A stretch of 64,000 nt of DNA from Syntrophobacteraceae bacterium (lineage in GTDB: Bacteria; Desulfobacterota; Syntrophobacteria; Syntrophobacterales; Syntrophobacteraceae). The translations under genes and the position numbers were made by a program. The notes beneath the pieces are model-generated. The model searched no databases. It was given only the letters and a program-made list of their open reading frames with translations, and was not told the origin of the DNA. This document shows, in pieces, positions 2,523-17,941 of this stretch (positions are counted from its first letter, which is position 1; each line of letters begins with the position of its first letter). The stretch is from NCBI GenBank assembly GCA_007125915.1, contig SLCH01000011.1, positions 924-64,923 of the forward strand, written 5' to 3'.

Positions 2523-2753
2523 AAATTTGCTGCGACTATAGACAGATCCCCATAGAGTGTCAATGAAAAAAGCCAGCCATGGAAGTGGTTTAACACCGTT
2601 TTGCCCCCATCCACGCTCTTCATGGGAAGCCATGGGTGAGGCCCTTTTCCTGTTCTTGTCCCCAGCGGTGAAAGGGCAACGGGCATGGTTGGATGACCTG
2701 AACTTTTTCAGTTCTCAAGAGGGGTTGAGAGGGGTTGAAGGAATTGGCGCATC

Positions 2754-3824
2754 ATGGATGAAGTGCTGATATACTTGGGAATAGTTTTCTGTATCACTCA
2801 GTCGGCGACTTTTTCGGGACTCAATCTGGCCGTCTTCAGCTTAAGCCGCCTTCGGCTGGAGACCGCGGCCGAAAGGGGAGACTCCAGGGCCGCGAAGGTG
2901 CTTGCTCTCAGGCGTGACGCCAACTACACTCTCGTCACTATCTTGTGGGGCAATGTGGCCATCAACGTGCTGCTCACCCTCCTTGCCGAATCCATCCTGG
3001 CTGGCGTGGCAGCCTTCCTTTTTTCCACAGTGGTCATCACTTTCATTGGTGAGATCATTCCTCAAGCCTACTTTTCCCGGCACGCCCTTCGCGTTGCAGC
3101 ATTGCTGGCTCCGGTTCTCCGGTTCTACCAGGTGATCCTCTGGCCCATTGCACGCCCCGTGGGAAAACTCCTGGACTTCTGGGTCGGGCCGGAAGGGGTG
3201 CCCTGGCTTCGAGAGCACGAGTTGCGAGAGATTCTTTACCACCATGCCCACAGTGCTTCAACGGAAGTGGGGCCCCTCGAAGCGACGGGCGCCATCAACT
3301 TTCTGGCTCTGGACGATCTGCCGGTGCGACGGGAGGGAGAAGTTTTGGATCCCATGAGCGTCATTCGCCTGCCTGTCCAGGATGGTCACCCCGTGTTCCC
3401 TGCCTTTATGCGGTCTCCCGAAGACCCTTTCATGCGCCATATGGTAGCATCGGGAAAGAAGTGGATTGTCATTACGGACATTGGGGGAGAACCGCGCTTT
3501 GTACTCAATGCCCATATGTTTCTCCGTGAGGCACTCTTTGGGGAGGATCGCTTCGATCCTGTGGCCATGTGTCATCGCCCTCTCCTGGTGCGTGATGGAG
3601 AGTGCAAGTTGGATCAGGTGCTGGGCCGCCTCAGAGTGAGACCGGAACATCCCGGAGACGATGTGGTCGATGAGGATTTGGTGCTTGTGTGGACCGAGGA
3701 AGAAAAACGCATCATCACGGGGTCCGATCTGCTGGGCCGTCTCTTGCGGGGCATCGTGTGGAATCCCGCAATTGGGAAGCAGGGTGGTCCTGCTCGGGAG
3801 CCGGAAAAAAAACTGCATAAGTGA
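2754..3824 (+). CDS. DUF21/CNNM-family membrane protein (TlyC/CorC-like) with divergent C-terminal region
   Basis: N-terminal four-TM DUF21 pattern (GLNLAVFSLS..LRLE.., LVTILWGNVAINV, GEIIPQA). Confidence 0.7.
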   Translation: MDEVLIYLGIVFCITQSATFSGLNLAVFSLSRLRLETAAERGDSRAAKVLALRRDANYTLVTILWGNVAINVLLTLLAESILAGVAAFLFSTVVITFIGEIIPQAYFSRHALRVAALLAPVLRFYQVILWPIARPVGKLLDFWVGPEGVPWLREHELREILYHHAHSASTEVGPLEATGAINFLALDDLPVRREGEVLDPMSVIRLPVQDGHPVFPAFMRSPEDPFMRHMVASGKKWIVITDIGGEPRFVLNAHMFLREALFGEDRFDPVAMCHRPLLVRDGECKLDQVLGRLRVRPEHPGDDVVDEDLVLVWTEEEKRIITGSDLLGRLLRGIVWNPAIGKQGGPAREPEKKLHK

Positions 3825-4050
3825 TTGACAGGCAGGGATGGGTTTGTTATGTTACCCAAGATAGATTGAATACATCACTGCCATTGTTTATTTCAAAAAC
3901 CTTATTCAAATCTGACACCCAAGTACAATGAGATTGTTTTCACAATGGCGTGAAGCCACAGGGCACTGAGATAGTCTGGTCGAGCGGCTCGGTTGTTATA
4001 TTAAAGTTATTTCAGCCGCTTATATCGCAAACCCTCGCATAGGATCGCCC

Positions 4051-4740
4051 ATGCCTCTCATCAAGATCGTTCCAAGTCTCAAAAAGGAAAAGTTGGCCCT
4101 TCGCCTGGGACAGAAACGAGCCGGCAGGATGTCCTACTCAAGTCGTCAAAAAATCAAAAAACTCAACCGAAGACTCGAAGAAATTCTAAAACCCTCCCTT
4201 TATTTCCGCTCCGTACCCCTCCACCGCGTGGGCAAGAGTTACACAGAGCTGGAAGATGGCACAAGATTTCAGAGCGTCAAGCTTTCCAGGACACTCAAAG
4301 GGTGTGAAGAGGTGGTCTGTTTTGCTGCCACCATCGGAGAAACGGTGGAAACGGAAATCTCCCGATTGATAGAGCAGAACAATCTCTCTGAAGCCTACAT
4401 CCTGGACACCATGGGATCCATTCTTGCCGAAAACATGGCCGAAAGCTTTTGGCAGCGCATGAGTTCCCAGTACAAACGGGAGGGGAGGGGAGTTTCCATC
4501 CGCTTCAGTCCCGGATATTGTGACTGGTCCATTTGCGAGCAGGAAAAGCTTTTCCGCTACATCGACACACAGAAGATCCCGGTCACCCTCACCGACAGCT
4601 TTCTCATGTCCCTCCGCAAATCCGTATCGGGAGTTTTCGGTATCTCACACCCTCACTGTGCCCAGGATGTTTCCTCTTACAATCCGTGTGACGAGTGCCG
4701 CAAGGTGGACTGCACTGAAAAGCGGAAGCGCGTTGCCTGA
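4051..4740 (+). CDS. methionine-synthase (MetH) activation-domain-like protein, putative corrinoid reactivation factor
   Basis: RFSPGYCDWSICEQEKLF and VTLTDSFLMSLRKSVSGVFGISHP match the RPxPGYPxCP / VTLTESxxMxPxxSVSG pattern of the MetH reactivation domain. First gene of the methyltransferase operon. Confidence 0.65.
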   Translation: MPLIKIVPSLKKEKLALRLGQKRAGRMSYSSRQKIKKLNRRLEEILKPSLYFRSVPLHRVGKSYTELEDGTRFQSVKLSRTLKGCEEVVCFAATIGETVETEISRLIEQNNLSEAYILDTMGSILAENMAESFWQRMSSQYKREGRGVSIRFSPGYCDWSICEQEKLFRYIDTQKIPVTLTDSFLMSLRKSVSGVFGISHPHCAQDVSSYNPCDECRKVDCTEKRKRVA

Positions 4741-4824
4741 GGCGCGTTCAGCGCCTTGACCCATTCCATTCAATCATGTGACCATTCTTCGTTCCATTCA
4801 TTCACCGGTTTTACAGGAGATTTC

Positions 4825-6285
4825 ATGAAACGAATCGGACTGTCTGGGGGCTCATATAAGCCTCTGGATTCATTGCAAATTGAGAAAATTCATCAGGCCA
4901 CACTGAAGGTTTTTGAAGAAGTGGGGGTCAAAGTCAGTTGCGGAGAGGCCCTTGAACTGTTTGAGGGTGCGGGCGCCAAGGTGGATCGCGAGCAAAAGAT
5001 TGTGAAACTTTCCCCAAAGCTTGTGGAGAAGATTCTGAGCACCACTCCCTCTGACATCAATCTCTGCGGCCGTGACGAAAGCGGAGAGCTCGATTGCGCC
5101 ATTGGGGGCAAGCGTGTTCACCTGGGCACGGGGGGCACGGCACTCAATGTTCAGGAGCCCGGAGCGACGGACAACAGAAGATCCCAACTCAAAGACATCG
5201 TCGACATGGCGCGCATGGTGGATGCTCTCGACAACATTCACTTCTATATGCTCAATGTCTATCCCAATGATTTGCCCATGGAAGACGTGGACGTGAACCG
5301 TTTCGGCGCTGCTCTTAACCGCACGCGAAAGCACGTCATGGGTGGTGTGTACACGGTGGAGGGGGTCAGAAATGTCATTCGCATGGCCGAAATAATTGCG
5401 GGTTCCCCGGAAAAGCTTCGGGAGCGCCCCTTTATTTCCATGGTGGCCTGCGTGATCAGCCCCTTTGTCATTGACGAACATTATGGGAAGTTGGGCATTG
5501 AGGCGGCACGAAACGGCATTCCCCTTGCCGTGCCGGCGGAGCCCCTCTGTGGCGCCACTTCTCCCATCACCCTTGCGGGAAACCTGGTGGTGTTGAATGT
5601 GGACACCCTCGCGGGAGTCATGATGACCCAGCTGGCCAAGGCGGGTGCCCCCGTGCTCTATGGCTGCGTGGCTTCGGTGACCGACTTGAGGGACATGAAG
5701 TATCTGGCCGGTGCCGTGGAAATGGGGCTCATCAACGCGGCGGCGTCTCAGCTGGCCCAGTTTTACAAGATTCCCGTCTACGCCACGGCGGGCATGTCCG
5801 ATGCCAAAATGAACGATCCTCAATCGGGATACGAGTCGGCCATCACCAGTCTTCTGGTTGCCCTTGCCGGTGGCAACTACATTCATGATGCAGCGGGGTT
5901 CATCGAGTTCTGCATGACGGCTTCCTACGACAAACTGGTGATCGATAACGAAATCATCGGAATGGTCATGAGGGCCGTGCAGGGAATCGAGGTGACCGAT
6001 GAAACCATCGCTTATGATCTCCTGAAAAAAGCGGGGCCATCGGGCCATTTTGTCTCTGAACGGCACACGCGCCGGCACATGCGCGCAGAGCATTATCAGC
6101 CTCAGCTCAGCAACCGGGAAGGCCGGGAAAAATGGCAGGCGGACGGATCCAAGGACGCCCGAATCCGGGCTGCGGAAAAATCTCGGGAAATTTTGGGGGC
6201 GCCTCCTGTTTCCTGTATTCCCGAAGACATTCGAAGCCGCCTGAAATCGGAAATTCCAGGCCTGAAACCCTTTGTCATGGAATAG
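4825..6285 (+). CDS. MttB-superfamily methyltransferase, non-pyrrolysine type (quaternary-amine:corrinoid methyltransferase-like)
   Basis: About 486 aa. N-terminal L..IH.ATL.VFEEVGV pattern and full uninterrupted frame (no in-frame TAG). AGGAG upstream of ATG 4825. Followed by pterin-binding and corrinoid proteins. Confidence 0.8.
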   Translation: MKRIGLSGGSYKPLDSLQIEKIHQATLKVFEEVGVKVSCGEALELFEGAGAKVDREQKIVKLSPKLVEKILSTTPSDINLCGRDESGELDCAIGGKRVHLGTGGTALNVQEPGATDNRRSQLKDIVDMARMVDALDNIHFYMLNVYPNDLPMEDVDVNRFGAALNRTRKHVMGGVYTVEGVRNVIRMAEIIAGSPEKLRERPFISMVACVISPFVIDEHYGKLGIEAARNGIPLAVPAEPLCGATSPITLAGNLVVLNVDTLAGVMMTQLAKAGAPVLYGCVASVTDLRDMKYLAGAVEMGLINAAASQLAQFYKIPVYATAGMSDAKMNDPQSGYESAITSLLVALAGGNYIHDAAGFIEFCMTASYDKLVIDNEIIGMVMRAVQGIEVTDETIAYDLLKKAGPSGHFVSERHTRRHMRAEHYQPQLSNREGREKWQADGSKDARIRAAEKSREILGAPPVSCIPEDIRSRLKSEIPGLKPFVME

Positions 6286-7096
6286 AAAAGGGAGTGAAAC
6301 CTTGATTGTTATCGGTGAAAACATCAACGCGACCATTCCTTCGGCCAAAAAGGTGATCATGAGCGGTGACGCCGAAAAGCTGGCCCGAATGGCCGTGGAT
6401 CAAGCCAATGCGGGAGCCGCCTACATTGACGTGAATGTGGCCACGGGAAAGGGAGGGCGCCGGGATGAAATTGCCGTCATGGAATGGGCGGTGAAAGCCA
6501 TCCAGGGTGCTGTGGACAAGCCCCTTTGCATCGACAGTGCCGATCCGGAAGTTCTCGAAGCGGGAATCAGGGCGGCCAGCGGGCCTGTGATGATCAATTC
6601 CACCACTGCCGAATCGGGGCGCATGGAACCGGTGCTCATGCTGGCCAAAAAGTTTGACGCTCCCATCATCGCCCTGGCCATGGACGAGAAAGGCATTCCC
6701 AAGTCGGTGGAGGGCCGTCTCGACGCCTGTGAAAAGATCGTCAATGCCTGCGGGAAAATCGGCATATCTCTTGACAAGGTTTATTTTGACGCCTTGGTGA
6801 TTCCCGTCAGCACCGACGCCAAAGAGGGTGTGGTGACCCTGGAGACCTTGACGGCCATTCAGGAACGGTTTCCAGAATCAAAAACAGTGCTGGGGCTTTC
6901 CAACATATCTTTTGGCCTGCCCGCCAGGGCCAACATCAACGCCGCCTTCCTGCACATGGCCGTTTGGGCGGGACTGGATGCGGTCATCCTGAACCCCACG
7001 GAAAAGGCTCTCATGGGAGCGGTGCGAACCGCAGAAGCCATCATTGGAAAAGACCGCCATTTCCGGCGTTACATGCGCATGTACCGCAAAAGATAA
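6272..7096 (+). CDS. methyltetrahydrofolate:corrinoid methyltransferase (pterin-binding domain, MtgA/AcsE-like)
   Basis: IGENIN..IDVN..PLCIDSADPEVLEAG..MINS..SNISFGLP pattern of pterin-binding methyltransferases. The start may instead be TTG 6302 (GGGAG upstream). Confidence 0.75.
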   Translation: MSWNRKGSETLIVIGENINATIPSAKKVIMSGDAEKLARMAVDQANAGAAYIDVNVATGKGGRRDEIAVMEWAVKAIQGAVDKPLCIDSADPEVLEAGIRAASGPVMINSTTAESGRMEPVLMLAKKFDAPIIALAMDEKGIPKSVEGRLDACEKIVNACGKIGISLDKVYFDALVIPVSTDAKEGVVTLETLTAIQERFPESKTVLGLSNISFGLPARANINAAFLHMAVWAGLDAVILNPTEKALMGAVRTAEAIIGKDRHFRRYMRMYRKR

Positions 7097-7134
7097 AGTT
7101 CAACACATAAGACTTTCAGAGGAAGAAAACCGCT

Positions 7135-7815
7135 ATGAACCAAACGGAATTGCTGGAAAAGATTGCATTCAATGTCATTCAGGGGCGAATGGTGCAGGAC
7201 GATGAAGGCCTGGACGAAGGCCTGGAAGGACAGCCTGCAGTGACGGAACTGGTGGCACAGGCCCTCGATGCGGGCATCAGTCCCAAAAAAATCGTGACCG
7301 AATCCTTGACCAAACCCATGGAAGAGGTGGGAAAGAAATTTGAAACGGGTGAATTCATGATTCCCGACATGCTCGCTTCCGCCGAATGTGTGGGCGCAGC
7401 CATGGATTTGCTCAAGTCGGAGCTCCTCAAGGAAGGGGTGAAAAGCAAGGGCATCTTTGTGATCGCCACCGTTGCGGGCGACCTTCATGACATTGGCAAA
7501 AACATCGTGTCCATTCTCCTGAAAGGAGAGGGATACGAGGTGATCGATCTCAAGACCGATGTGCCCACGGATAAAATCGTGGAAGCCGTGAAGGAGCACA
7601 ACGCTCCTTTTCTGGGGTTGTCGGCGCTGCTCACCACCACCATGGAAACCATGAAAGATGTGGTGGACAAACTGCAGGTGGAGGGTCTTCGTGAGAAAGT
7701 GAAGGTACTCATCGGGGGAGCACCCACATCTTCCGACTTTGCCAGGCAGATCGGTGCGGATGCGCACTGTGCGGATGCCTTTCAGGCCATCGAAGTCTTG
7801 AGGAGATATGCGTGA
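7135..7815 (+). CDS. corrinoid (B12-binding) protein, MtgC/MtbC-like
   Basis: DxHxxG base-off motif (GDLHDIGKNIV). B12-binding helical cap followed by Rossmann-type domain (GLSALLTTT). Confidence 0.85.
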   Translation: MNQTELLEKIAFNVIQGRMVQDDEGLDEGLEGQPAVTELVAQALDAGISPKKIVTESLTKPMEEVGKKFETGEFMIPDMLASAECVGAAMDLLKSELLKEGVKSKGIFVIATVAGDLHDIGKNIVSILLKGEGYEVIDLKTDVPTDKIVEAVKEHNAPFLGLSALLTTTMETMKDVVDKLQVEGLREKVKVLIGGAPTSSDFARQIGADAHCADAFQAIEVLRRYA

Positions 7816-9029
7816 AGAATCAGGAACAAGTAAAAATTTCAACGGAAAAACTGGGCGAGCCGACCGTGGAAATGCTGCGGCAGACTCACGAAGACGCCCT
7901 GTGGATCCTTGAAAACCTGGGGGTGGGCTGCAAACAGCCTGAAATGCAGGCGGCCTTTCGTCCGCTGGAAGCCGAGGGGCTTGCCTTCATTCATGAAGAT
8001 CGGATCTATGTCACAACAGACCTGGTGAAAAAGTGCCTGGAAACGGTGCCGGGTCTCAAGGATTTTTTTGTGCCGCGCAACAGCTTTTTTATTGGGGGAA
8101 CGGCACCCTACGTCTATGACGATGCATCGGGCGAGGGGGGCATTCTTCCCACGGAAGAGCATGTGGTGCGCATTGCAAAAATTGCAGAAAAGTCCTCTGT
8201 GGTGGCGGGAATGGGCAGAGGTGTGAAACTCAAGGATGAAGTGGTTCAGATGAACATCATGAACCAATACTGCTCCAAACCTCTTTATTTCGCGGTCACC
8301 TCCGACGAGGCGCTCAAGCGGGCCCGTGAGATCTACGAAACGCGCAAAAACATCATGATCGTCTTTTGTCTCACCCGCCCGCCTTTAGAGGTCAACGAGA
8401 ATTTTTCCGATCATTTCGTCAAGGTGGTGCAGGCGGGTCTCCCCGTTTTCATTTCCGCCATGCCCATGGCCGGCATCAGCGCACCCTTTTGCTACAACGG
8501 GGTTCTGGCCATGACTCACGCTGAGGTGCTTTTCGGCATCTGCACCGCTCAGCTCATGAATCCAGGCATCACCTGCATACACGCCGGGTTTCCCACCATC
8601 GCGGACCCCCGGATCGAATACAATCCCAATTATGGGCTCATCAGCCACAATCTGCTCAATCTTCTCATGACTCACCTGAATCTCATGCTGGACCTGCCCA
8701 CCTTTCAAAGTGCGGGAACCACTCATGAAGAGCACCCCACGGAGCGTGCCTTTGCCGATGCCAGGATGGGCCAGGCCATGTGTCTCAAGTACGGTTTCCA
8801 CATGATTCGCCACCCATTCGCCTTTCTCCGGTACCTCATTGATTTTTCCATCGACAAGCTGGAAAAGAGTGTGGAACTGGCCCTGAAGGTGAAGCCCGAA
8901 GATGCGCCTCAGGTGCAAATGCCCGTGTACGACGAAAGGGGCATGGAATCCATAAGGAATATCGGTTTGGGCATGTACATGGACGATCCGCTGACAACGG
9001 CCAATTTTGGAAAGGTTTTTGCCTCATGA
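7812..9029 (+). CDS. short MttB-superfamily paralog (X1), 405 aa
   Basis: GTGA overlap with the corrinoid protein stop. The N-terminus (HEDALWILENLGVGC..) has the same pattern as the MttB at 4825 but is about 80 aa shorter. Clear paralog of 13567..14739. Confidence 0.6.
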   Translation: MKNQEQVKISTEKLGEPTVEMLRQTHEDALWILENLGVGCKQPEMQAAFRPLEAEGLAFIHEDRIYVTTDLVKKCLETVPGLKDFFVPRNSFFIGGTAPYVYDDASGEGGILPTEEHVVRIAKIAEKSSVVAGMGRGVKLKDEVVQMNIMNQYCSKPLYFAVTSDEALKRAREIYETRKNIMIVFCLTRPPLEVNENFSDHFVKVVQAGLPVFISAMPMAGISAPFCYNGVLAMTHAEVLFGICTAQLMNPGITCIHAGFPTIADPRIEYNPNYGLISHNLLNLLMTHLNLMLDLPTFQSAGTTHEEHPTERAFADARMGQAMCLKYGFHMIRHPFAFLRYLIDFSIDKLEKSVELALKVKPEDAPQVQMPVYDERGMESIRNIGLGMYMDDPLTTANFGKVFAS

Positions 9030-9103
9030 TTCTGGTCCCCCTTTCATGGGAACCTGAAACCCTTTTGGCTTCCCTCAGGCAGGAGAAGAAGTCACGGGCA
9101 CAG

Positions 9104-9147
9104 CGGGTGGAGAGTTGAAACGCCATCGCAGCTGAAAGGTGGTTCGA
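9104..9147 (+). pseudogene. relic of asnB 3' end
   Basis: GGGTGGAGAGTTGAAACGCCATCGCAGCTGAAAGGTGGTTCGA aligns with the asnB tail GGTGGATGGGGATTTGAAACACGATCACAATGAAATGGTGGCTTGA. Confidence 0.45.
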
Positions 9148-9152
9148 TCCAG

Positions 9153-9330
9153 ATGACGAAACCCGCAGCCCCCTGTCCGGGAGCTGCGCAGCCATTTTCT
9201 GTACCTGCAGCTCCTGCAGCATTTGCCCGCAGGCTGTTGAAAAGGGCATGCCCCATTCCAGAAGAGGGCATGCCCTTTTTTCTTTTCATGGCGCCGGTCT
9301 GCTCCCGGACTGGTCGGTGTGAATAAATCG
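9153..9330 (+). pseudogene. frameshifted relic of the MBL-hydrolase 5' end (may extend in decayed form towards about 9620)
   Basis: 9215-9292 aligns almost base for base with 12764-12838 of the intact MBL gene. The homologous frame (..CSSCSICPQAVEKGMPHSRRGHALF..) is out of frame with the relic ATG and stops early. Confidence 0.65.
9243..9287 (+). terminator. Rho-independent terminator built from the MBL relic
   Basis: Two copies of the self-complementary GGGCATGCCC separated by 11-12 nt, followed by TTTTTTCTTTTC. Confidence 0.5.
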
Positions 9331-10047
9331 GCAGCTGTGCAGGCGGTCCGTTGATGGGCAGAAACACTCCATGTTCACTCGCACGGCTACTATCTGCGTA
9401 GCCGGATTTTCCCGTGGTGAAGGATGCCGTGCTGGATTTTCCCCCAGGGGAAAGCTGTGAAGGGAGGAAAAAATCTTCGATTCTGCCCCAGCACATGAAC
9501 GTGCCAATCCTCAAGTATCCCCAAACAAGCCGGTCAAAGATGCGTCCCCAACCCCCTTCCAACTCTTCCTGGCTCTGCCCGCCTCTTCAGGGTGGGCCCG
9601 GAGGGGTTTGCCGTCAAATGACCCAAATTTTATGACTTGAATAAAGTGGTGTAAATATAATTAGTTAAATAATGCTTGTAAAAATTTATTATTTGAACTA
9701 ATATTCTATGAGTGGCTGAACGGAAACAGAGAGTGCGCCTTGGATGGTTTGTGCGGCAGGGCCCCCTGGTTTTCAGTGAAAAATTTCCAGTCCTCCAGGA
9801 ATTCAAACACATAGTTTCAAGAGGGGTTTGGAGCAGGGCGGCAAAGGCTCATGGGCGCCCGTTCCAAAACATCGAGTTCAATGCCGGGCACAAAACCAGA
9901 CAGAAGGGCGCCACCCTCATGGCTGTTTGCCTCAAAGGCCTCTTTTTGTGGGGCAAAGCAGCAAAAGCCGATGAAGGTTGTGCGTGATCTCTTCTCAGGC
10001 TTCCTGGCGGGCCACCTCCATCGGGTGGACCGTTGGCGCTGGGAGCA

Positions 10048-10180
10048 GATGCGCACCCAGTTCAAATGCCCGTTCAGGACAAAAGAGGCATGAAATCCAA
10101 GAAGAAACTCGGTTTGGGCAGGTCCATGGACGATATGCTGACGGCGGCCAATTTTGCAAAACTTGTCTGTTGCCTCATGA
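10048..10180 (+). pseudogene. relic of the 3' end of a short MttB-like gene (weaker similarity back to about 9850)
   Basis: GATGCGCACCCAGTTCAAATGCCCGTT...GCCAATTTTGCAAAA...GCCTCATGA aligns with 8900-9029. The translated frame (PVQMPVQDKRGMKS..LGLGRSMDDMLTAANFAK) aligns with PQVQMPVYDERGMES..GLGMYMDDPLTTANFGK. Confidence 0.7.
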
Positions 10181-10342
10181 GCCGTGCCCCGGACCACCCT
10201 CATGGTTCACGAAACCAGAAGGGGATCAAAACTCAAGGATGGGAAGATTTAAAGGCAGAGCTGAAGCTTGAAGTTTCCCCAAATGAGGGACTTCCGGCCG
10301 CCGTGTGAGGTTCTGCTCGTCTCATCGAATGAAGGAGAGAAC

Positions 10343-11941
10343 ATGTGTGGATTGGCGGGATGTTTCGGCATCAAGGACGAGAAAACCATCAACAAAATGC
10401 TCGATGTGCTCGGACATCGTGGACCCAACGACCGTGGTATTTTTTCCAGGGGCAGAATGGTGTTGGGCCACACGCGGCTTTCCATTGTGGATGTGGCGGG
10501 AGGCCATCAGCCCATTTTGGCTGAAAACGGGAAGATGGGAATCATTTGCAATGGAGAGATCTATAACTTTCGCAGGCTCCGTGAACCTTTGGCGTCCAAG
10601 TACGCTTTCACCACTTTTTCCGACTCGGAAGTGATCCTCCATCTCTATCGTGAAAAGGGCCCCTCCTGCGTGAAGGAGCTGGATGGGATGTTTGCCTTTG
10701 CCCTGTTTGATGGAGATGATTTCCTTCTGGCACGGGATCCCGTTGGCATCAAACCCCTCTATTACGGCCATGCTGGGGAAAACATGTATTTCAGTTCCGA
10801 ACTGGGAGCCATGATCCTGGCGGGTGTCGACCAGGTGCACGAGTTCCCGGCGGGTCACTATTACACACCACGGGAAGGCTTTGTGCGGTACTACAACATA
10901 CCCGAGGTGCAGGATCATCTGCTCACCAACGTGGAGGAGACCAAAGAACTCATTCGCAGCACGTTCATTCGCTCAGTGAAGAAGAGGCTGCTGGCCGATC
11001 CCGAGATTCCCGTGGGTTCCTTTTGCAGCGGGGGACTGGACAGCAGCCTGGTGGCGGCCATTGCAGCCGACGAGATTCCTCACCTCCACACATTTGTGGT
11101 GGGCATGAAGGACGACCTTGGGGATGTGAGTGACGACATCAAGGCGGCACGCATCGCCGCCAAGCACATCGGTTCCACCCACCACGAACTTGTGTTCACG
11201 GAAGGGGAGTACTATGACGCTCTGCCCACGGTGATTCAAAAGCTTGAGAGCTATGACCCTTCTCTCGTCCGCTGTGCCGTTCCCTGCTATTTCACATGCA
11301 AGCTTGCTGCTGATTACGTGACGGTGGTGCTGACCGGCGAGGGTGCTGATGAGCTGTTCACGGGCTACCACTACATGAAGCATTTTCCCTTGGAAAAGCT
11401 CAACCAGGAAGCCCGGCGCTGCATCGGTGGATTGCACAACATCAATTTGCAGCGAGCGGACCGAATGGGAATGTACTTCAATCTGGAATTGCGCGTTCCT
11501 TTTCTGGATGTGGAGATGATCGATCTTGCCATGAAGATTCCCCATGAACTCAAGATAAGGGAGCACAATGGTGCCAAGATCGAGAAGTGGATTCTAAGAA
11601 AGGCATTTGAAGATACTGGATACCTTCCCGACGAGGTCCTCTGGCGTTACAAGGTTCAATACACTCAGGGAGCAGGGTGTGAAAGCCTGGGAGAGGCCAT
11701 GGCGGAAAAGGCCATGACGGATGAAGAATATCATCGCATCAAGGCCGAGAATCCTCTGGCCACCATCAACAGCAAAGAGGCGGCTTTTTATTTCAAGATT
11801 TTTCGGGAGTTTTTTCCCAACGATTCCGTTCTGGGTTCCGTCGGCATTTGGACCGGATTTGATTTTGCAGAGGAAAGAGAGAAAGTCAGAGGCACGGTGG
11901 ATGGGGATTTGAAACACGATCACAATGAAATGGTGGCTTGA
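10343..11941 (+). CDS. asnB: asparagine synthetase (glutamine-hydrolysing)
   Basis: Starts MCGLAGCFG (Cys2 nucleophile of class-II amidotransferases; AAGGAGAG RBS). SGGLDSS PP-loop present. Confidence 0.85.
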   Translation: MCGLAGCFGIKDEKTINKMLDVLGHRGPNDRGIFSRGRMVLGHTRLSIVDVAGGHQPILAENGKMGIICNGEIYNFRRLREPLASKYAFTTFSDSEVILHLYREKGPSCVKELDGMFAFALFDGDDFLLARDPVGIKPLYYGHAGENMYFSSELGAMILAGVDQVHEFPAGHYYTPREGFVRYYNIPEVQDHLLTNVEETKELIRSTFIRSVKKRLLADPEIPVGSFCSGGLDSSLVAAIAADEIPHLHTFVVGMKDDLGDVSDDIKAARIAAKHIGSTHHELVFTEGEYYDALPTVIQKLESYDPSLVRCAVPCYFTCKLAADYVTVVLTGEGADELFTGYHYMKHFPLEKLNQEARRCIGGLHNINLQRADRMGMYFNLELRVPFLDVEMIDLAMKIPHELKIREHNGAKIEKWILRKAFEDTGYLPDEVLWRYKVQYTQGAGCESLGEAMAEKAMTDEEYHRIKAENPLATINSKEAAFYFKIFREFFPNDSVLGSVGIWTGFDFAEEREKVRGTVDGDLKHDHNEMVA

Positions 11942-11972
11942 TTCAAACCTTGAAACCCCGTTGCACCTGGAA

Positions 11973-12014
11973 AACCTGCCGGCAGGCTCAAGAGAAGGGC
12001 CTGCCCTTTTTATT
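11973..12014 (+). terminator. short MBL 5' relic (21-nt deletion) forming a weak hairpin plus T-tract after asnB
   Basis: AACCTGCCGGCAGGCTCAAGAGAAGGGCCTGCCCTTTTT aligns with ATTTGCCGGCAGGCTCGTGAGAAGGGC...CCCGCCCTTTTT of the MBL gene. Stem GGCAGG/CCTGCC followed by CTTTTTATT. Confidence 0.4.
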
Positions 12015-12488
12015 GCCCGTCTCTGCCAAACCTTCGGTCCACCGATTACGACAGCTTGGTACGGGGTTCTTCCATAATGCGCCACGGATCTCAAGGAACA
12101 GCCCCCAGGGAAGATGAAGGTCCTTATAAACCCCGGGGGTATTTTAAGGCCCGCTTCGTCTTCATCTCCAAGTGAGCGGGACTGACGGGCTCTTTCGACC
12201 CCATGAATCCTTTTGCAGTCTTACGGGGCAGGGCTCCAAATTATGGGCTGCCCAAAAATTGAAACCATGGGGTCATGTGTCGCTGCGGCATGTGTCCACC
12301 CCGGTTCAAATGCTCCCCATTGGCGGTGACCCGCCATAAGACCCATTTCAGGGGAAATAAGCGTGACCGGGGCCATCGGGGTATTGCCACAAAGGGGTTT
12401 TGGTCCTGCTGTGTCAGGAAAGAGGGACCAGAATGGCCTTGACAGAATGGACTGTACCCGCTACTGAAAACCCTGAAAGGTGATTTTC

Positions 12489-12695
12489 CATGATCGAATG
12501 TGGAAAAGACCGAACTTGTGCCAGGACACCCAGCGGCTATTTATCTCAAAATCTTCCGGCATTTTTTTCCTCATGATCTTGCCTCATGGCTCCATCGGCA
12601 TTTGGACGAAGTTTGACTTTGACGAAGAGAGAGAAAAAGTCAGAGACACGGTGGGTGGAGATTTGAAGCACAATCACAGTGAAACGATGGCTTGA
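12489..12695 (+). pseudogene. internally deleted asnB copy (start region fused to 3' end)
   Basis: 12489-12510 resembles the asnB RBS/start region. 12597-12695 is colinear without gaps with 11843-11941 (both end ..ATGGCTTGA/..GTGGCTTGA). Translation is ..GSIGIWTKFDFDEEREKVRDTVGGDLKHNHSETMA. Confidence 0.7.
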
Positions 12696-12703
12696 TTCAT
12701 ACC

Positions 12704-13555
12704 ATGAAGCTCTCAGTTCTCGGGTCTGGCGGCTGCTCCCCCATTCCCAAGCCCTGCTGTTCTTGCAGAATTTGCCGGCAGGCTCGTGAGAAGGGCATAC
12801 CCTATTCCAGAAGCGGGCCCGCCCTTTTTCTCCATGGCATCAATCTGCTGGTCGATACTCCTGCAGAAATTGTTCAGCAGTTGAACAGGTGCTCCATTGA
12901 TGCAGTGGAGCACCTCATCTTCACCCACACCGATCCCGACCATGTGGAAGGGTTTCGTGTGGTGGAGCAAATTGCCCTGGACTTTCGCACATGGAAAAAC
13001 TATGAGGACAAGCAGATCGCTCTGGTTTTGCCCCAATATTTACATGAGCGAATCCGGCGGGTGTGTTCGGCCTATGGCCCTCTGGTTTCCTATTATCTTC
13101 AGCAGGGCTACATTCGCACTCGAAAGTTTCAGGAGACCACCTTCATCGGTGCGGTTCATGTCACGGCCCTTCCCGTGGACCGAGGAGATCAAACGGTCTA
13201 CATTTACGTTTTTGAAGAATCAGGGAGAAAGGTCGTTTATGCCCCTTGCGACATTCGACCCTTTCCTGAAAACCGCTCAGAAGTTTACGATGCGGACCTT
13301 CTGCTCATTCAGCCGGGAATTTTTGAAGAGGGTTTGAAGCACGGTTTTGTCTATCCTGCCAATCATGTCTCGCGAAACACTTTGTACACCTTCCCTCAAA
13401 CCCTGGCTCTGGCGCGGCGGATTCGTGCCAGGAAGACCGTATTCATTCATATGGAAGAATACTGGAACCGCAGTCACGATGACTACCTTGAACTGGAAAG
13501 AGTTCATTCCCAAATTCGCTTTGCTTATGATGGAATGGACCTCACCGTCAAATGA
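12704..13555 (+). CDS. MBL-fold metallo-hydrolase, PhnP-like, with N-terminal Cys cluster
   Basis: VLGSGGC..CCSCRIC N-terminus as in PhnP-type MBLs. The metal motif reads THTDPDH (HxDxDH instead of HxHxDH). Confidence 0.75.
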   Translation: MKLSVLGSGGCSPIPKPCCSCRICRQAREKGIPYSRSGPALFLHGINLLVDTPAEIVQQLNRCSIDAVEHLIFTHTDPDHVEGFRVVEQIALDFRTWKNYEDKQIALVLPQYLHERIRRVCSAYGPLVSYYLQQGYIRTRKFQETTFIGAVHVTALPVDRGDQTVYIYVFEESGRKVVYAPCDIRPFPENRSEVYDADLLLIQPGIFEEGLKHGFVYPANHVSRNTLYTFPQTLALARRIRARKTVFIHMEEYWNRSHDDYLELERVHSQIRFAYDGMDLTVK

Positions 13556-13566
13556 AAGGTTTTTGA

Positions 13567-14739
13567 ATGTTTTACACTGAAGAACTTCTCGAAAAAGTTC
13601 ACGGCGATGCAGTGCGTATTCTTGAAGAAGTGGGTGTCAAATGCCACTCGGAAAGGGTTCGAAGAATTTTCGAAGACACGGGACTTGCGGCCTATGATGA
13701 CACGACGGGCCATCTTCATGTCCTGTCACCTCTCATTGAGCAGGCCCTTCAAACCACGCCCAAGCGGAATGAGTTTTTCCTCCCCGAAAACTCATTCGGT
13801 GTGGGAGGGACGGCCCCTTTTGTCCATGCGGATGGGACGGGGGAACTCATTCCTCCCACTTTTGAGCATTTGGTGAAGATCGCAAAAATAGTCAACGAGG
13901 CGGACGTGGTGCAGTTCATGGCCAGGGGGGTGCTCATTCCCAAGGAAGAGGTCAAGGTCATGGACACCATCATTGAACACTGTCACAAGCCTGTGTATGT
14001 GGCCGCCCTCACGCCCGAGGGCATTGCGCGGGCAGAGGAGATTCATCAAAGGAGGGGCAAGCTGACCGTTCAGTTCTCCATCATCAACAGTCCCTTGAAT
14101 GTCATTGAGTCCATGGTGGACCCTTTTCTGTCCTGCGTGGAAAAAGGCATTCCCATTTATGTTTCCACCATGCCCATGGCGGGGCTTTCGGGACCGTACA
14201 GCATGTCCTCTCTTCTGACTTTGACGCACGCAGAGGCTCTTTTCGGCATCACTTTGGCACAGTTGATCAATCCGGGAGTCACAGTGGTCCACGCGGGGCT
14301 TCCGTCCATTGCGAGCATTCAAAAAAAATACGCTGTGGACATGGGTCTCATGTCGCTGAATGTGGCCAACCTGCTCATGGAGAAAGTGAACAAGCGGTTG
14401 AACATTCCCTCAATCCAGACCGCCTGCACAACCAGCCAGGAGCATCCCAATGAAGTCTCCGAGCAAGAAGCCATTCGAGGCTATGCTCTTCTGAAACATC
14501 ATGGTTTTCATCAAATTCGCCATGCCTTTGGTTTTCTCAAGGAACTGGTGTCCTTTTCCATTGCAAAGCTGGAGCGCCACATCCAACTGTGCAGGGAGAC
14601 AGCTCCGGCAGACAACTATGCGGAACCGGTTATCTACGATCCCGAGGGTTATGATGCCATCGTGCGCAATGGCAGCCAGGCGAACTATATGGGAGATGCG
14701 CATACCCTGAAAAATACGGGCAAAGAATTTTTGTATTGA
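13567..14739 (+). CDS. short MttB-superfamily paralog (X2), 390 aa
   Basis: Alignable along its whole length with 7812..9029 (e.g. FxGGTAPxVxxDxxGE, PMAGxSxPx, THAExLFGI, LINPGVT/LMNPGIT). Starts 11 nt after the MBL gene. Confidence 0.6.
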   Translation: MFYTEELLEKVHGDAVRILEEVGVKCHSERVRRIFEDTGLAAYDDTTGHLHVLSPLIEQALQTTPKRNEFFLPENSFGVGGTAPFVHADGTGELIPPTFEHLVKIAKIVNEADVVQFMARGVLIPKEEVKVMDTIIEHCHKPVYVAALTPEGIARAEEIHQRRGKLTVQFSIINSPLNVIESMVDPFLSCVEKGIPIYVSTMPMAGLSGPYSMSSLLTLTHAEALFGITLAQLINPGVTVVHAGLPSIASIQKKYAVDMGLMSLNVANLLMEKVNKRLNIPSIQTACTTSQEHPNEVSEQEAIRGYALLKHHGFHQIRHAFGFLKELVSFSIAKLERHIQLCRETAPADNYAEPVIYDPEGYDAIVRNGSQANYMGDAHTLKNTGKEFLY

Positions 14740-15161
14740 TCCGCATACATTCGAATGAGGAAAGAATGTTCTTTTTTCTCCATTTCAGTTAAAAAATAAT
14801 ATAGTATGTTTCATCAATACAGTCTTGAGGAGGAACTGACGTTGACTTCTCCCATGCTGAGGCAGTTGCTGCGCATCTTCACATCAAGCCCTTCAATCTC
14901 AATGCCACTCTCACACGGATATACTTGTCCTGTTAATGATCAACTGTATGGTTCCGAACTTTCATGGTGCGAAATTCTTTTGAACATGGAGCCTGAACAT
15001 TCAGGGCCACGCTTGGAACTGTTTCACAAATGGCAGGGATGAGTGCAGTTTTCACGGTCATTTTCACTGCGGGGTAAAGAAGGGAGGTGTGGGAAGCTTC
15101 TTGAGGTGGATTGAGTTTTTGTCATCATACCCGTATAAATGATTATCAAAAGGAGGGCTTT

Positions 15162-15641
15162 ATGTACAAGAAAATCATGGTTCCGCTGGATGGATCAAAG
15201 TTTGCTGCCTCGGCACTTCCTCATGTGATAGAACTGGCAAAGGCTTTTAATTCACAAGTGATTGTTTTCCATTCATGTGCTTCCCCCGAAGATGCGGGAA
15301 TGGCTGATGCCGCAGGCGGGGTTCGTGATGCAGCCGCATCGGCCGAACACAGAGTTTGCGAACGCTTCCTCGGCGAGGCGGCCCAGGAACTGAAAGCAAA
15401 GGGGCTTGAGGTTGAAACCGTTTGTGCCTCGGGAAACCCTGCACGTGAGATCATTGGCTATGCGGACAAAAGCTCTGTGGATCTCATTGTGATGGCAACC
15501 CATGGCAAGGGCGAGGTGGCCTGGGTGCTGGGCAGTGTTGCTGAAAAAGTGGTTTCCCATGCCACTGTGCCCGTTTTTCTCCATCGTGTGGTCGAGCGCA
15601 AAAAGCCCATTCTTGAGGGAGAAATGGTCGGTATGCCTTAA
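15162..15641 (+). CDS. universal stress protein
   Basis: MYKKIMVPLDGS..., DLIVMATHGKG..LGSVAEKVV pattern. AAGGAGGG RBS. Confidence 0.8.
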   Translation: MYKKIMVPLDGSKFAASALPHVIELAKAFNSQVIVFHSCASPEDAGMADAAGGVRDAAASAEHRVCERFLGEAAQELKAKGLEVETVCASGNPAREIIGYADKSSVDLIVMATHGKGEVAWVLGSVAEKVVSHATVPVFLHRVVERKKPILEGEMVGMP

Positions 15642-15780
15642 GGTCTAAGGTCCTTCGTTGAAGGAGGGAAAGCCAGGAGCCCACTTCGGCAGCTCAAGCC
15701 CCGTTTGTCCGGCAAGGCGAGCAGCCCAGGGACTTTTTCTCGAGGTGGGCGCCCGAGTTGAATATCTCACGAAAGCAAAA

Positions 15781-15819
15781 AGGGACTGGAGCAAAATCTG
15801 CTCAAGTCCCTTCTTTTTT
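15781..15819. terminator. bidirectional terminator (usp / tRNA-Ala)
   Basis: Stem AGGGACT/AGTCCCT with T-tracts on both strands. Confidence 0.5.
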
Positions 15820-15826
15820 GCCGGCT

Positions 15827-15902
<76 letters not shown>

Positions 15903-16045
15903 CCTTGCGATGTGGGTGTATCAATACAAAAGACGTCTCACCTTGTCAACAGTTTTGTTGCTTTATTCCCCCATTCCAAAGAGTCTTTTCTCCCTGGTGC
16001 TTTGTATCTGCGCGGTCGTTTTCACTGCATATCCAACGCAAGCCT

Positions 16046-16384
16046 TCAATCCAACTTCCACTCTATCTCCTCAAAAAGATCTTCCATCTCATAGAGAAGC
16101 TGGTCCGCTTCGGCCAGCTTCCATTCGGCTGCCTTCTTTTCAATGGCTTTGTGTAATTTCTGCAGCTTGTCCCGATGGGGTAAAAGGGCCTCTCTGAGAC
16201 GCGTTCCCTCATAATGATACAGAAGCTCATCCAGCTGTTGTGCAAGGTCGTAAGGGGAAGGGTCTTTGTCTGCCCACCGGGTGTCCAGGTACCCGAGGTG
16301 CCGTTTCAGTTTGGGGTAGATGTCCTGCATGCCCCCTTTGTAAAAGGGAAGGATTTTGATGCTGATCTGCATGTGTTTGCTCAT
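16046..16384 (-). CDS. hypothetical helical protein (about 112 aa)
   Basis: ORF trimmed to MSKHMQISIK.. with a GAGGA RBS. No recognisable motif. Confidence 0.35.
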   Translation of the reverse strand: MSKHMQISIKILPFYKGGMQDIYPKLKRHLGYLDTRWADKDPSPYDLAQQLDELLYHYEGTRLREALLPHRDKLQKLHKAIEKKAAEWKLAEADQLLYEMEDLFEEIEWKLD

Positions 16385-16737
16385 GGACTGTTTCCTCATC
16401 CTCAAGGGGAGAAACCATGTTCGCACTATGGGGGCTTCTGCTTCAGATTCCCAAAATTCGAAGGCCGGCTTTCCTGGTATGAAATGATTTTGATCGCCCC
16501 CTCCACAGAGTCCCAAGACCCGCGAATGCAGCCAGGTTGGGCTCGAGAACCCCCAGCAACAGAGTGCTCTTTTGCCTTCTGATGTACAGCTTTGACCGTC
16601 CGTTACAGGATTGTCAATTGATTTAATGATGTTAATTTTTAATAATGCTATAGGTCGTTGAAAAGAGCGAAACGGGTGATTTTCTCACTTGCCATTTGTT
16701 TGAATCCTCCCCGAAAAATGCCACTGGGGCACGGCCC

Positions 16738-17352
16738 ATGAAGAGTTCACATTACAGGAAATTCTTCCTGTTCATCTGTTTGGTGCTGGTTCTTGTTTCA
16801 TTTTCCCTCATTTTCCTGCAGACGTCCTGGTTTCAGAAGAAAATGACGTCCAATTTTGTGCACAAAGTGGAGACCATATGGGGATATTCATTGAAGTTCG
16901 ACAGGTGTCATTGGAATGTCTTGTCCCAGCTTGAACTGCATAATGTTGCAGCCACCCGGGGAGCAACAGATGTTTTTCGAGTGGATGAGGCCAGAATCAG
17001 CTATGATTTATCGCTCCTTTCATTGAAGATCAGAATACGCCATGTGCTTTTGGACCACCCCGTGCTGTTTGTCCAAAAGGATGATCGGGGGCGATGGTCC
17101 CTTCCCGCAGGAAAAGCAACAGCTGCCGCATTTTCTTCTCGAGGCAGTCAAACACGAGTATGGGAATGGAGTGGGGCCACTTTGAGCATTTCATCGGGGA
17201 CACTCAAGGGTCTTGATGAAAATGGCAGTGTAGTCTTCAGAACCAGCTTTTCCGGCAGTTTCCGCCTAGAAAGCGTGATCGAAGAAGACTTGGAAAAACT
17301 CTTGATGAACATGGAATTCTTCGGGGGAAACAGTCGGTTGCGCAGTTTCTGA
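16738..17352 (+). CDS. hypothetical membrane-anchored protein
   Basis: MKSSHYRKFFLFICLVLVLVSFSLIFL N-terminal TM anchor. No recognisable motif otherwise. Confidence 0.4.
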   Translation: MKSSHYRKFFLFICLVLVLVSFSLIFLQTSWFQKKMTSNFVHKVETIWGYSLKFDRCHWNVLSQLELHNVAATRGATDVFRVDEARISYDLSLLSLKIRIRHVLLDHPVLFVQKDDRGRWSLPAGKATAAAFSSRGSQTRVWEWSGATLSISSGTLKGLDENGSVVFRTSFSGSFRLESVIEEDLEKLLMNMEFFGGNSRLRSF

Positions 17353-17560
17353 CACCGCCTTTCAAAAAATGAAGAGATTACGATGAAACCATAGAATCTT
17401 ATCACTCATCCCGCAAACTCCTTGACTCCATGGACACGGGATTCTCATGGATTCTGTGTTTTGTGGTCTGCTTTTAAGCCTTCGAAAGATGATGCAGATG
17501 CAGAGAAACCATGAAGTGGGGGAGGGGAACTGACGGTTTTCCATCACAGGAGCGCATCCC

Positions 17561-17758
17561 ATGAAAATGCAGGAAGTGAGAAAAATTGCCAAACAATTGG
17601 GCGTCAACTCATTTGGGAAAAAGAAGGTCGATCTGATCCGTGAAATACAGAGAAAGGAAGGTTATTTCGATTGCTATGGCACTGCTGAAGATTGGTGTGA
17701 TCAGGAGCAATGCGTCTTTCGTGCATCCTGCCTGGAGAAAGCTGATTTCAAACCATAA
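17561..17758 (+). CDS. small Rho_N/SAP-like protein with Cys-rich tail
   Basis: MKMQEVRKIAKQLGV....KKKVDLIREIQ resembles the Rho-N/SAP helix-extended-helix motif. C-terminal C..C..C..C. AGGAG RBS. Confidence 0.45.
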   Translation: MKMQEVRKIAKQLGVNSFGKKKVDLIREIQRKEGYFDCYGTAEDWCDQEQCVFRASCLEKADFKP

Positions 17759-17941
17759 GGTTGCCCCTGTTCCGTGCCGGGAACCCGTTTGCGGAATCAA
17801 AAGAGACAAAAGTTGAATCTTGTGAAGGATAGAACACGCCGAAGCTGCGGCTTTGGCATGAGGCCACTCTCACGGGTATCCGCAAAGGGGCTGGCTTATG
17901 TGTTTAGTCGTGTGATATCAATTATTTAATAAATATTTGAC

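Follow-up and report, generated by a model that had tools for sequence, protein, structure and literature searches.

We analyzed a 64,000-nt stretch of Syntrophobacteraceae bacterium DNA (assembly GCA_007125915.1, contig SLCH01000011.1, positions 924 to 64,923 of the forward strand), and this whole stretch is called the window (W) throughout. Between 7812 and 14739, the window carries two short MttB-family genes (X1 and X2), an asparagine synthase B-type gene (asnB; N) and a gene for a metallo-β-lactamase (MBL)-fold hydrolase (M), and the spacers between X1 and N (spacer 1) and between N and M (spacer 2) contain decayed copies of parts of these genes, here marked psi for pseudogene fragment. 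The intact genes of the locus and those leading into it are the following.

4756-6285, + strand: full-length MttB homolog without amber codon
6272-7096, + strand: pterin-binding methyltransferase
7135-7815, + strand: B12-binding corrinoid protein
7812-9029, + strand: X1, intact short MttB-family gene, 405 aa (Pfam PF06253, E 1e-21)
10343-11941, + strand: N, intact asparagine synthase B-type gene, 532 aa (NCBIfam NF006949, 612.6 bits)
12704-13555, + strand: M, intact MBL-fold hydrolase gene, 283 aa (Pfam PF12706)
13567-14739, + strand: X2, intact short MttB-family gene, 390 aa (PF06253 match)

X1 is the last gene of an MttB-MtgA-corrinoid-X1 block. The longest open reading frame (ORF) of N spans 10268-11941, and the real start is the ATG at 10343 (MCGLAG...), which gene callers use in loci L001-L005; likewise, the longest ORF of M begins at 12692 and the real start is the ATG at 12704 (MKLSVLGSGG). 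The NF006949 score of N exceeds the curated equivalog cutoff of 499, and a Cys directly follows the initiator Met, two features that on sequence grounds qualify N as an asparagine synthase B. The M protein has 1318 homologs, with P0001 (283 aa) 99% identical to it. X1 and X2 score 77 and 107 bits against PF06253 (Pfam cutoff 25), covering profile positions ~35-438 of 500, and 60-78 bits against the trimethylamine methyltransferase equivalog TIGR02369, whose cutoff is 525.

The initial annotation, made from the letters of the DNA, had described three sets of DNA homology in this region. A self-blastn of window positions 7000-16000, a comparison that it had proposed, returned significant off-diagonal matches for all three where it had placed them, and a separate repeat search (families D1-D4) agrees. 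Every repeat is in direct orientation, with E values down to 2e-34: 8900-9029 matches 10047-10180 (77.6%, 134 nt, E 1e-24), 11780-11954 matches 12533-12708 (77.8%, 176 nt, E 2e-34), 9083-9280 matches 12631-12829 (73%, 200 nt, E 3e-25), 9077-9164 matches 11871-11958 (72%, E 4e-5) and 11977-12010 matches 12773-12806 (85%, E 1e-4). No further copies of these were found in the whole 64-kb window, and an Rfam scan of 4000-18000 at E<=1 returned no RNA family in the spacers. The order of fragments read in the initial annotation, X1-psiN-psiM / psiX-N-psiM / psiN-M / X2, was correct, and the spacers are composed as follows, where A, B and C denote the successive copies and L007 a locus of a sister species described below.

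9040-9146, + strand: psiN-A, last ~100-120 nt of asnB (72% match to 11871-11958; part of the 200-nt match to copy C)
9153-9500, + strand: psiM-A, 5' ~350 nt of the MBL gene, residues 1-118 (tblastn E 5e-16)
9520-10044, + strand: orphan A, containing junction J2 (no match found)
10045-10180, + strand: psiX-B, last 134 nt of X1, residues 364-405, including the TGA (blastn 77.6%, E 1e-24)
10181-10342, + strand: copy of the X1-N intergenic leader (10111-10342 aligns with L007 10973-11202 at 73.6%)
11950-12016, + strand: psiM-B, 5' MBL remnant (blastn 85%, E 1e-4; tblastn E 4e-5)
12017-12438, + strand: orphan B, containing junction J3 (no match found)
12439-12695, + strand: psiN-C, 3' part of asnB from codon ~396-411 to the stop (blastn 77.8%, E 2e-34)

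In copy A, psiN-A begins within ~10-35 nt of the X1 stop, its 5' limit being uncertain (9040-9064), and its former TGA stop is now CGA at 9144-9146. The frameshifted M copy that the initial annotation had placed at 9215-9292 is real and extends further than thought, over residues 12-118: by tblastn, M residues 12-88 lie at 9176-9409 (50% aa identity), and residues 88-118 continue past a frameshift to ~9500. This psiM-A carries an in-frame stop, the frameshift near 9408, and a hairpin plus U-run at 9239-9290; its translation is 50% identical to the window M, 49% to the L007 M and at most 42% to 150 other M proteins. psiX-B retains 61.5% aa identity to X1 residues 364-402 by tblastn and matches X1 profile positions 373-413 (30 bits), with no tblastn match to X2, and it is present also in L004 and L007, the two assemblies of the sister species. 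psiM-B follows N after the same 8-nt N/M spacer; its start ATG is now TTG, and it contains a terminator-like hairpin (11981-12005) followed by a U-run. The deletion in psiM-B, first given as 21 nt, is in fact 42 nt and is followed by another of ~10 nt (offsets 754 vs 796). psiN-C, which tblastn matches to N residues 505-519 and 523-557, has lost ~250 nt internally near 12527-12533 in comparison with the sister species, and 8 nt separate its end from the M start. Thus, copies A, B and C each hold the N 3' end, the 8-nt spacer TTCAnACC and the M 5' end, and psiX-B followed by the X1-N leader likewise carries a gene boundary intact.

The two orphan stretches gave no such assignment. By blastn, blastx and profile hidden Markov models (HMMs), orphan A matches no family, nor the window, L007 or 80 related loci, and orphan B likewise matches neither X1, X2, the window, L007, the 80 loci nor the family profiles; when spacer 2 was scanned along in-register diagonals with N and with M, its middle (12017-12466) also gave no signal. 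The profile HMMs were built from the 80 loci for nine families (X1, X2, N, N', M, Y, CN hydrolase, MarR and corrinoid protein), and the only pieces they detected in the spacers were X1-3', N-3' and M-5'. The HMMs for Y (DAO), N', CN hydrolase, MarR and corrinoid protein were also run on spacer sequence translated in six frames from the window, L007 and Desulfonema magnum; they matched nothing, and so gave no sign that the orphans are remains of genes that accompany the cluster in relatives. We also considered an inverted 20-mer (9029-9048 / 12415-12434, 18 of 20 positions complementary) whose arms coincide exactly with the beginning of spacer 1 and with the end of orphan B; it was not significant (E 0.24) and was rejected as a meaningful element.

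The arrangement is borne out at the assembly level. Three assemblies (ENA ERZ27301262, NCBI GCA_003561075.1 and Logan SRR7083934) are collinear with window 7000-16000 at >=99.9% identity and with zero gaps, and a sister species, assembled twice (L004, GCA_003554705.1; L007, PXBG01000145.1; 99.6% identical to each other), holds orthologous fragments, so that the architecture is reproduced in five assemblies of two species. The sister genes are 85-96% identical to those of the window at the aa level and ~85-90% at the DNA level. The possibility that the region is an assembly artefact had been raised in the initial annotation, as a mis-assembly of separate loci; such a chimera, or a collapsed or expanded repeat, draws on the fact that every available assembly is a short-read metagenome assembly. 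Since the three independent assemblies agree without a gap over 9 kb, the sister species carries orthologous fragments in both of its assemblies, and the repeats, at 64-81% identity, are too diverged to mislead an assembler, mis-assembly is very unlikely and close to negligible.

The sister species displays the N/M duplicate in a less eroded form. In L004 it is one contiguous 573-nt alignment (2544-3103 to 3291-3858) with 71% identity and a period of 747 nt, which is what a ~750-bp segment spanning the N/M boundary leaves when it is duplicated head to tail. The window has the same layout with a period of 754 nt and no unrelated gene between the copies. In L007, psiM-B is significant to ~12927 and psiN-C from ~13115, and the ~140-185 nt between them are unassignable and have no similarity to X1 or X2. 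The 42-nt and ~10-nt deletions of psiM-B and the ~250-nt deletion of psiN-C are specific to the window and absent from L007.

These comparisons changed the reading of two further stretches. First, 12489-12510 had been taken for the ribosome-binding site and start region of an internally deleted asnB. The ortholog of window 12439-12529 in L007 is 13043-13141 (blast E 8e-11 to 8e-14), and this L007 stretch has at its 3' side the 5' edge of the contiguous L007 psiN (N codons ~410-423). By this orthology, 12489-12510 corresponds to internal N codons ~410-423, which refutes the start-region reading, and direct comparison gave 22/54 identities to the N start, not above chance, vs 25/54 to the internal N region. 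Second, 12095-12480 had been proposed as the remnant of a third X gene, a proposal that we abandon, because the stretch has no similarity to X1 or X2 and neither has the 140-185-nt equivalent in L007.

The state before the rearrangements can be seen in relatives. In the complete genome of D. magnum, the genes run X1-N-M-X2-CN hydrolase with no fragments between them, at 78% (X1), 84% (N), 64% (M) and 77% (X2) aa identity to the window. Scanning one genome per species, we found 80 loci with X1 orthologs at 74-96% identity, mostly in Desulfobacterales and Desulfatiglandales and including NaphS2 and Desulfobacterium N47. Their general cluster is [MarR]-X1-asnB and/or a second, divergent asnB (29-31%)-DAO-family FAD oxidoreductase-M-X2-CN hydrolase (for example, L086 8093-16346 and L039 8947-17948); the DAO gene (~450 aa) occurs in 57 loci, MarR in 60 and CN hydrolase in 36. 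X1 and X2 are 42% identical to each other at the aa level and belong to distinct ortholog groups, both represented in D. magnum and in most of the 80 loci; in D. magnum and most longer loci, the X2 group sits downstream of M. Because X1 and X2 flank N and M in D. magnum and many of the 80 loci, X2 predates the duplications; it is thus an ancient paralog of X1 lying outside them, rather than one of two X copies that had survived an amplification, as first suggested. X1-N-M-X2 is accordingly an ancestral four-gene unit that recurs in many of the 80 genomes, often with extra genes. Across 68 loci, the median distance from X1 to asnB is ~45 nt, and this spacer is bloated in only two, at ~985 nt in L007 and ~1310 nt in the window, and the N-M gap is only ~40-150 nt in L018, L025, L037, L063 and L076. 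A literature search for this gene combination found nothing relevant.

Several of the related loci have irregularities of their own. The 547-nt N-M spacer of D. magnum contains a 96-nt direct repeat at 93% identity (L005 9704-9798 / 9890-9985), and a short tandem array with a period of about 63-90 nt follows M (L005 10833-11001); these repeats are unrelated to N, M or X, and spacers of the cluster seem prone to local duplication in other lineages too. In L045, L056, L061, L065, L067 and L070, tblastn found split or frameshifted X2, N', M or N, which are either pseudogenes or sequencing errors in metagenome-assembled genomes. Just upstream of X1 in D. magnum (CP061800.1; L005 6349-6480) lies a 44-residue corrinoid-protein remnant, 50% identical to the N-terminus of the window protein, so the corrinoid methyltransferase operon found ahead of X1 in the window was apparently lost in D. 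magnum.

Each fragment is closest to the X1, N or M of its own lineage: psiX-B is 77.6% identical to the window X1 vs 68% to the D. magnum X1, and psiN-C is 77-79% identical to the N of the window and L004 vs 68% to that of D. magnum. Therefore the fragments were made in place and not imported, and the earlier view of them as direct duplicates of resident genes holds. This bears on a further explanation, in which the fragments would be scars of allele or cassette replacement by DNA of a related organism. M, at only 64% identity to its D. magnum ortholog against 77-84% for X1, N and X2, would be the natural candidate for such an exchange; M is, however, 55-66% identical to all relatives and so simply evolves faster, and the fragments are collinear and direct, with native gene boundaries, and nearest to the genes of the window and L007 lineage itself. 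We give replacement only a very small chance, and horizontal transfer of M in particular was rejected on the same identities and by the closeness of its fragments to the resident M.

Compared with X1-N-M-X2, the locus has only three novel junctions.

~9030-9064: J1, X1 stop joined to N nt ~1480, deletion type
within 9520-10044: J2, M nt >=354 joined to X1 nt 1085, duplication type
within 12017-12438: J3, M nt ~126-316 joined to N nt ~1100-1165, duplication type

Since there are only three, two tandem duplications and one deletion suffice to produce the locus, and we consider it likely that the repeats are pseudogene debris of boundary-spanning tandem duplications within the conserved X1-N-M-X2 unit. 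This reading starts from what the alignments display directly, namely the fragments with their parentage and orientation, the three junction types, the presence of fragments before the species split and the ancestral gene order. We infer the number and order of the events and their mechanism, which may have been replication slippage or illegitimate recombination. The duplications would have been local, with end points inside genes, and would have occurred in the common ancestor of the window species and its sister. In the first step, a segment of ~750 bp over the N/M boundary, from ~430-500 nt before the N end to ~250-320 nt into M, would have been duplicated, turning N-M into N-psiM(5')/psiN(3')-M, with both genes left intact and a spacer as long as the duplicated segment. 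In the second, a larger duplication (at least ~2.2 kb) would have taken in the final 134 nt of X1, all of N and no less than the first 350 nt of M, giving X1-N-psiM(5')/psiX(3')-N-M. In the third, the redundant first N would have been deleted almost entirely, from just past the X1 stop to ~100-120 nt before the N stop. Rearrangements would have survived only where an intact copy of every gene remained; thereafter the fragments would have decayed roughly neutrally, each of the two species losing further short stretches of its own, and ~950 nt are now filled by unrelated sequence.

Several observations weigh against this history. Nothing matches the ~525 nt at 9520-10044 and the ~420 nt at 12017-12438, for which additional insertions or replacements are needed, and both duplication junctions fall within this decayed or orphan sequence (~12930-13115 in L007). 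Copy A (psiN-A/psiM-A) is absent from spacer 1 of L007, although it stands equally far from the M of the window and that of L007 (64% each over 333 nt); this history therefore needs a loss, which probably took place in L007. The divergences of the fragment pairs are mutually inconsistent and so give no consistent order or number of events. Finally, amplification of a whole unit followed by deletions would lead to the same end state.

This last route was the one originally proposed: a complete X-N-M unit would have been amplified to at least three tandem copies, perhaps under dosage selection, and independent deletions would have left one N, one M and scraps. The three-copy order and the common orientation of the fragments are as it predicts, the pair divergences overlap (Jukes-Cantor, JC, distances of ~0.25-0.5) and are compatible with a single burst, and the orphan stretches could hide erased material. 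The extra copies, however, show no trace of an X 5' end, an N 5' end or an M 3' end by tblastn or HMM, X2 belongs to the ancestral unit as an ancient paralog, and no X similarity exists in 12095-12480 or in the 140-185 nt of L007. Homologous recombination is the usual way in which amplified arrays collapse, and it leaves no scraps. Whole-unit amplification further requires at least two unit duplications and three ragged deletions, that is, at least five events vs three, and a recent whole-unit repeat was found in none of the 80 related loci. We prefer the partial duplications on account of this parsimony and of the lack of recent whole-unit repeats in the 80 relatives, and regard amplification of the complete unit as unlikely. 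The premise that the genes were amplified as one unit, from which their joint function had been argued, is not borne out; co-function of the cluster genes is instead supported by their conserved synteny, which supports well their co-occurrence across the related genomes.

The age of the debris was gauged against four-fold degenerate sites, which are 68% identical between the window and L007 (JC ~0.42) and serve as a neutral yardstick. The identities of the fragments to their parent genes are as follows.

psiX-B vs X1: 78%
psiN-C vs N: 78-81%
psiM-B vs M: 63-69%
psiN-A vs N: ~64%
psiM-A vs M: first 124 nt 73%, next 209 nt 59%

Pair identities thus range over 64-81%, and their N and M parts disagree, so that ordering the events by divergence was tried and found not robust; all events would fall roughly at 1-1.7 times the age of the species split. 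psiX-B, psiM-B and psiN-C are common to the window and L007 and therefore predate that split. Between the two species, the genes have 85-90% DNA identity while the spacers are almost unalignable, which fits neutral drift with indel turnover, and the psiM-B orthologs are 48% identical. The conserved exceptions lie before M, where the last ~65 nt are 86% and ~160 nt are 79-80% identical, and before N, where 235 nt are 74% identical; a short promoter-like block in orphan A, described below, is also kept.

A further reading is that the fragments were retained because they function, the psiM pieces as intrinsic terminators after X1 and N and the spacers as a source of a new promoter and leaders, which would have split a formerly tight, translationally coupled operon into units under separate control; this is compatible with either model of origin. 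Every psiM piece has a hairpin and a U-run. In fold predictions, the hairpin of window copy A (9239-9290) has a dG of -29.5 and a z-score of -3.4, that of window copy B (U-run to 12015), 40 nt past the N stop, has a dG of -17.8 and a z-score of -2.0 and accounts for 92% of the ensemble, and that of L007 copy B has a dG of -32.5. By eye, the stretch that follows X1 in L007 also holds a strong hairpin with T8, unrelated to these. A promoter-like motif, TTGTAA/TTGTCA-17-TAATAT, is kept between the species within an otherwise unalignable spacer (window 9676-9704, TTGTAA-17-TAATAT, in an AT-rich block of orphan A; L007 10718-10746), the last ~65 nt before M exceed the 68% of neutral sites, and the debris has persisted since before the species split. 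Against function, the same hairpin and T-run is present within the intact M coding sequence and was thus inherited rather than evolved, terminator-like and promoter-like elements are no more frequent than in shuffles, the psiM-B orthologs have diverged to 48%, copy A is missing in L007, and the short ORF that ends before M is in a different frame in L007. Retention for function is accordingly rather improbable. The specific version in which the 5' hairpin and U-run of M were copied behind X1 and asnB, where they are now predicted terminators, and, together with the promoter at 9676-9704 and the leaders, made separately regulated units, appears quite unlikely; if true, it would explain why the debris outlived speciation despite deletional bias.

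Three smaller points concern these elements. Within intact M, a GC-rich hairpin followed by a T-run of 5-8 T lies at codons ~30-47 (window 12791-12830; L007 13640-13690), and it may act within the gene as an attenuator or pause site, or may have arisen by chance from the codons for SGPALF(L/F). A conserved small ORF translationally coupled to M was considered, since both species have an ORF whose end lies 8-9 nt ahead of the M ATG, and was rejected because the frames differ. Derivation of the promoter block of orphan A from the promoter upstream of X1 in stand-alone clusters was rejected too, as there is no homology and those promoters are generic TTGACA-N17-TATAAT.

The partial duplications that we favor resemble the segmental tandem duplication and degeneration that leaves pseudogene fragments in bacteria, here with direct, head-to-tail copies beside their parents. 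Duplications with end points inside genes yield 5' and 3' fragments while one intact copy is kept, and the fragments then decay nearly neutrally. Unlike the general case, the debris here is unusually long-lived, predating a speciation with 32% divergence at four-fold sites, and two or three events cluster in one 5-kb operon. In Escherichia coli mutation-accumulation lines, fixed tandem duplications are almost absent and deletions are commoner (PMC10292909). The locus also resembles gene amplification and collapse (innovation-amplification-divergence) in having several direct copies of one segment, and an asnB-containing segment seems to have been duplicated at least once; it differs in that no complete extra units and no sign of a dosage benefit are present, and in that ragged fragments remain instead of a clean loss of units. 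The mechanism is ordinary, then, and it is the preservation of the evolutionary fossil that is unusually good.

The genes upstream of X1 recall the non-pyrrolysine corrinoid methyltransferase systems of the MttB superfamily, for example MtgB for glycine betaine (PMC13080624; PMC12155760), in having an amber-free MttB, a pterin-binding methyltransferase and a corrinoid protein. In contrast to the MttB-type proteins of those systems, X1 and X2 are ~100 residues shorter and far below the family equivalog cutoff, and the X genes of relatives stand mostly with asnB, DAO oxidoreductase, MBL and CN-hydrolase genes, often with no corrinoid protein nearby. The Rfam element PYLIS_3, an mttB pyrrolysine insertion element, matches at 5794-5893 (54 bits, above the gathering score of 38), inside the full-length MttB ORF (4756-6285), which has no in-frame stop; the match probably reflects conserved coding sequence of a non-pyrrolysine MttB. 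A Usp gene and a tRNA-Ala are also encoded in the window. In a Chloroflexota genome (GCA_042580085.1; L006 3120-10849), an asnB-MBL pair directly follows an operon of MetH-activation-domain, MttB, MtgA, MttB and corrinoid genes; the two proteins are 34% and 66% identical to N and M, and the short X genes are absent. This arrangement suggests for the asnB-MBL pair an accessory role common to corrinoid methyltransferase systems in general.

The locus illustrates from nature how an operon in bacteria comes to hold gene-boundary fragments through partial tandem duplication, and how durable this debris can be; it also teaches that fragments lying in array order prove neither the amplification of a whole unit nor the joint function of its genes. 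The cluster X1-asnB-(second asnB)-(DAO)-MBL-X2-(CN hydrolase), often behind MarR, is widespread in Desulfobacterales and Desulfatiglandales and apparently uncharacterised. In the window lineage, it is fused to a corrinoid methyltransferase operon, and this association points to an as yet unknown step of the metabolism of methylated amines or amides under anaerobic conditions.

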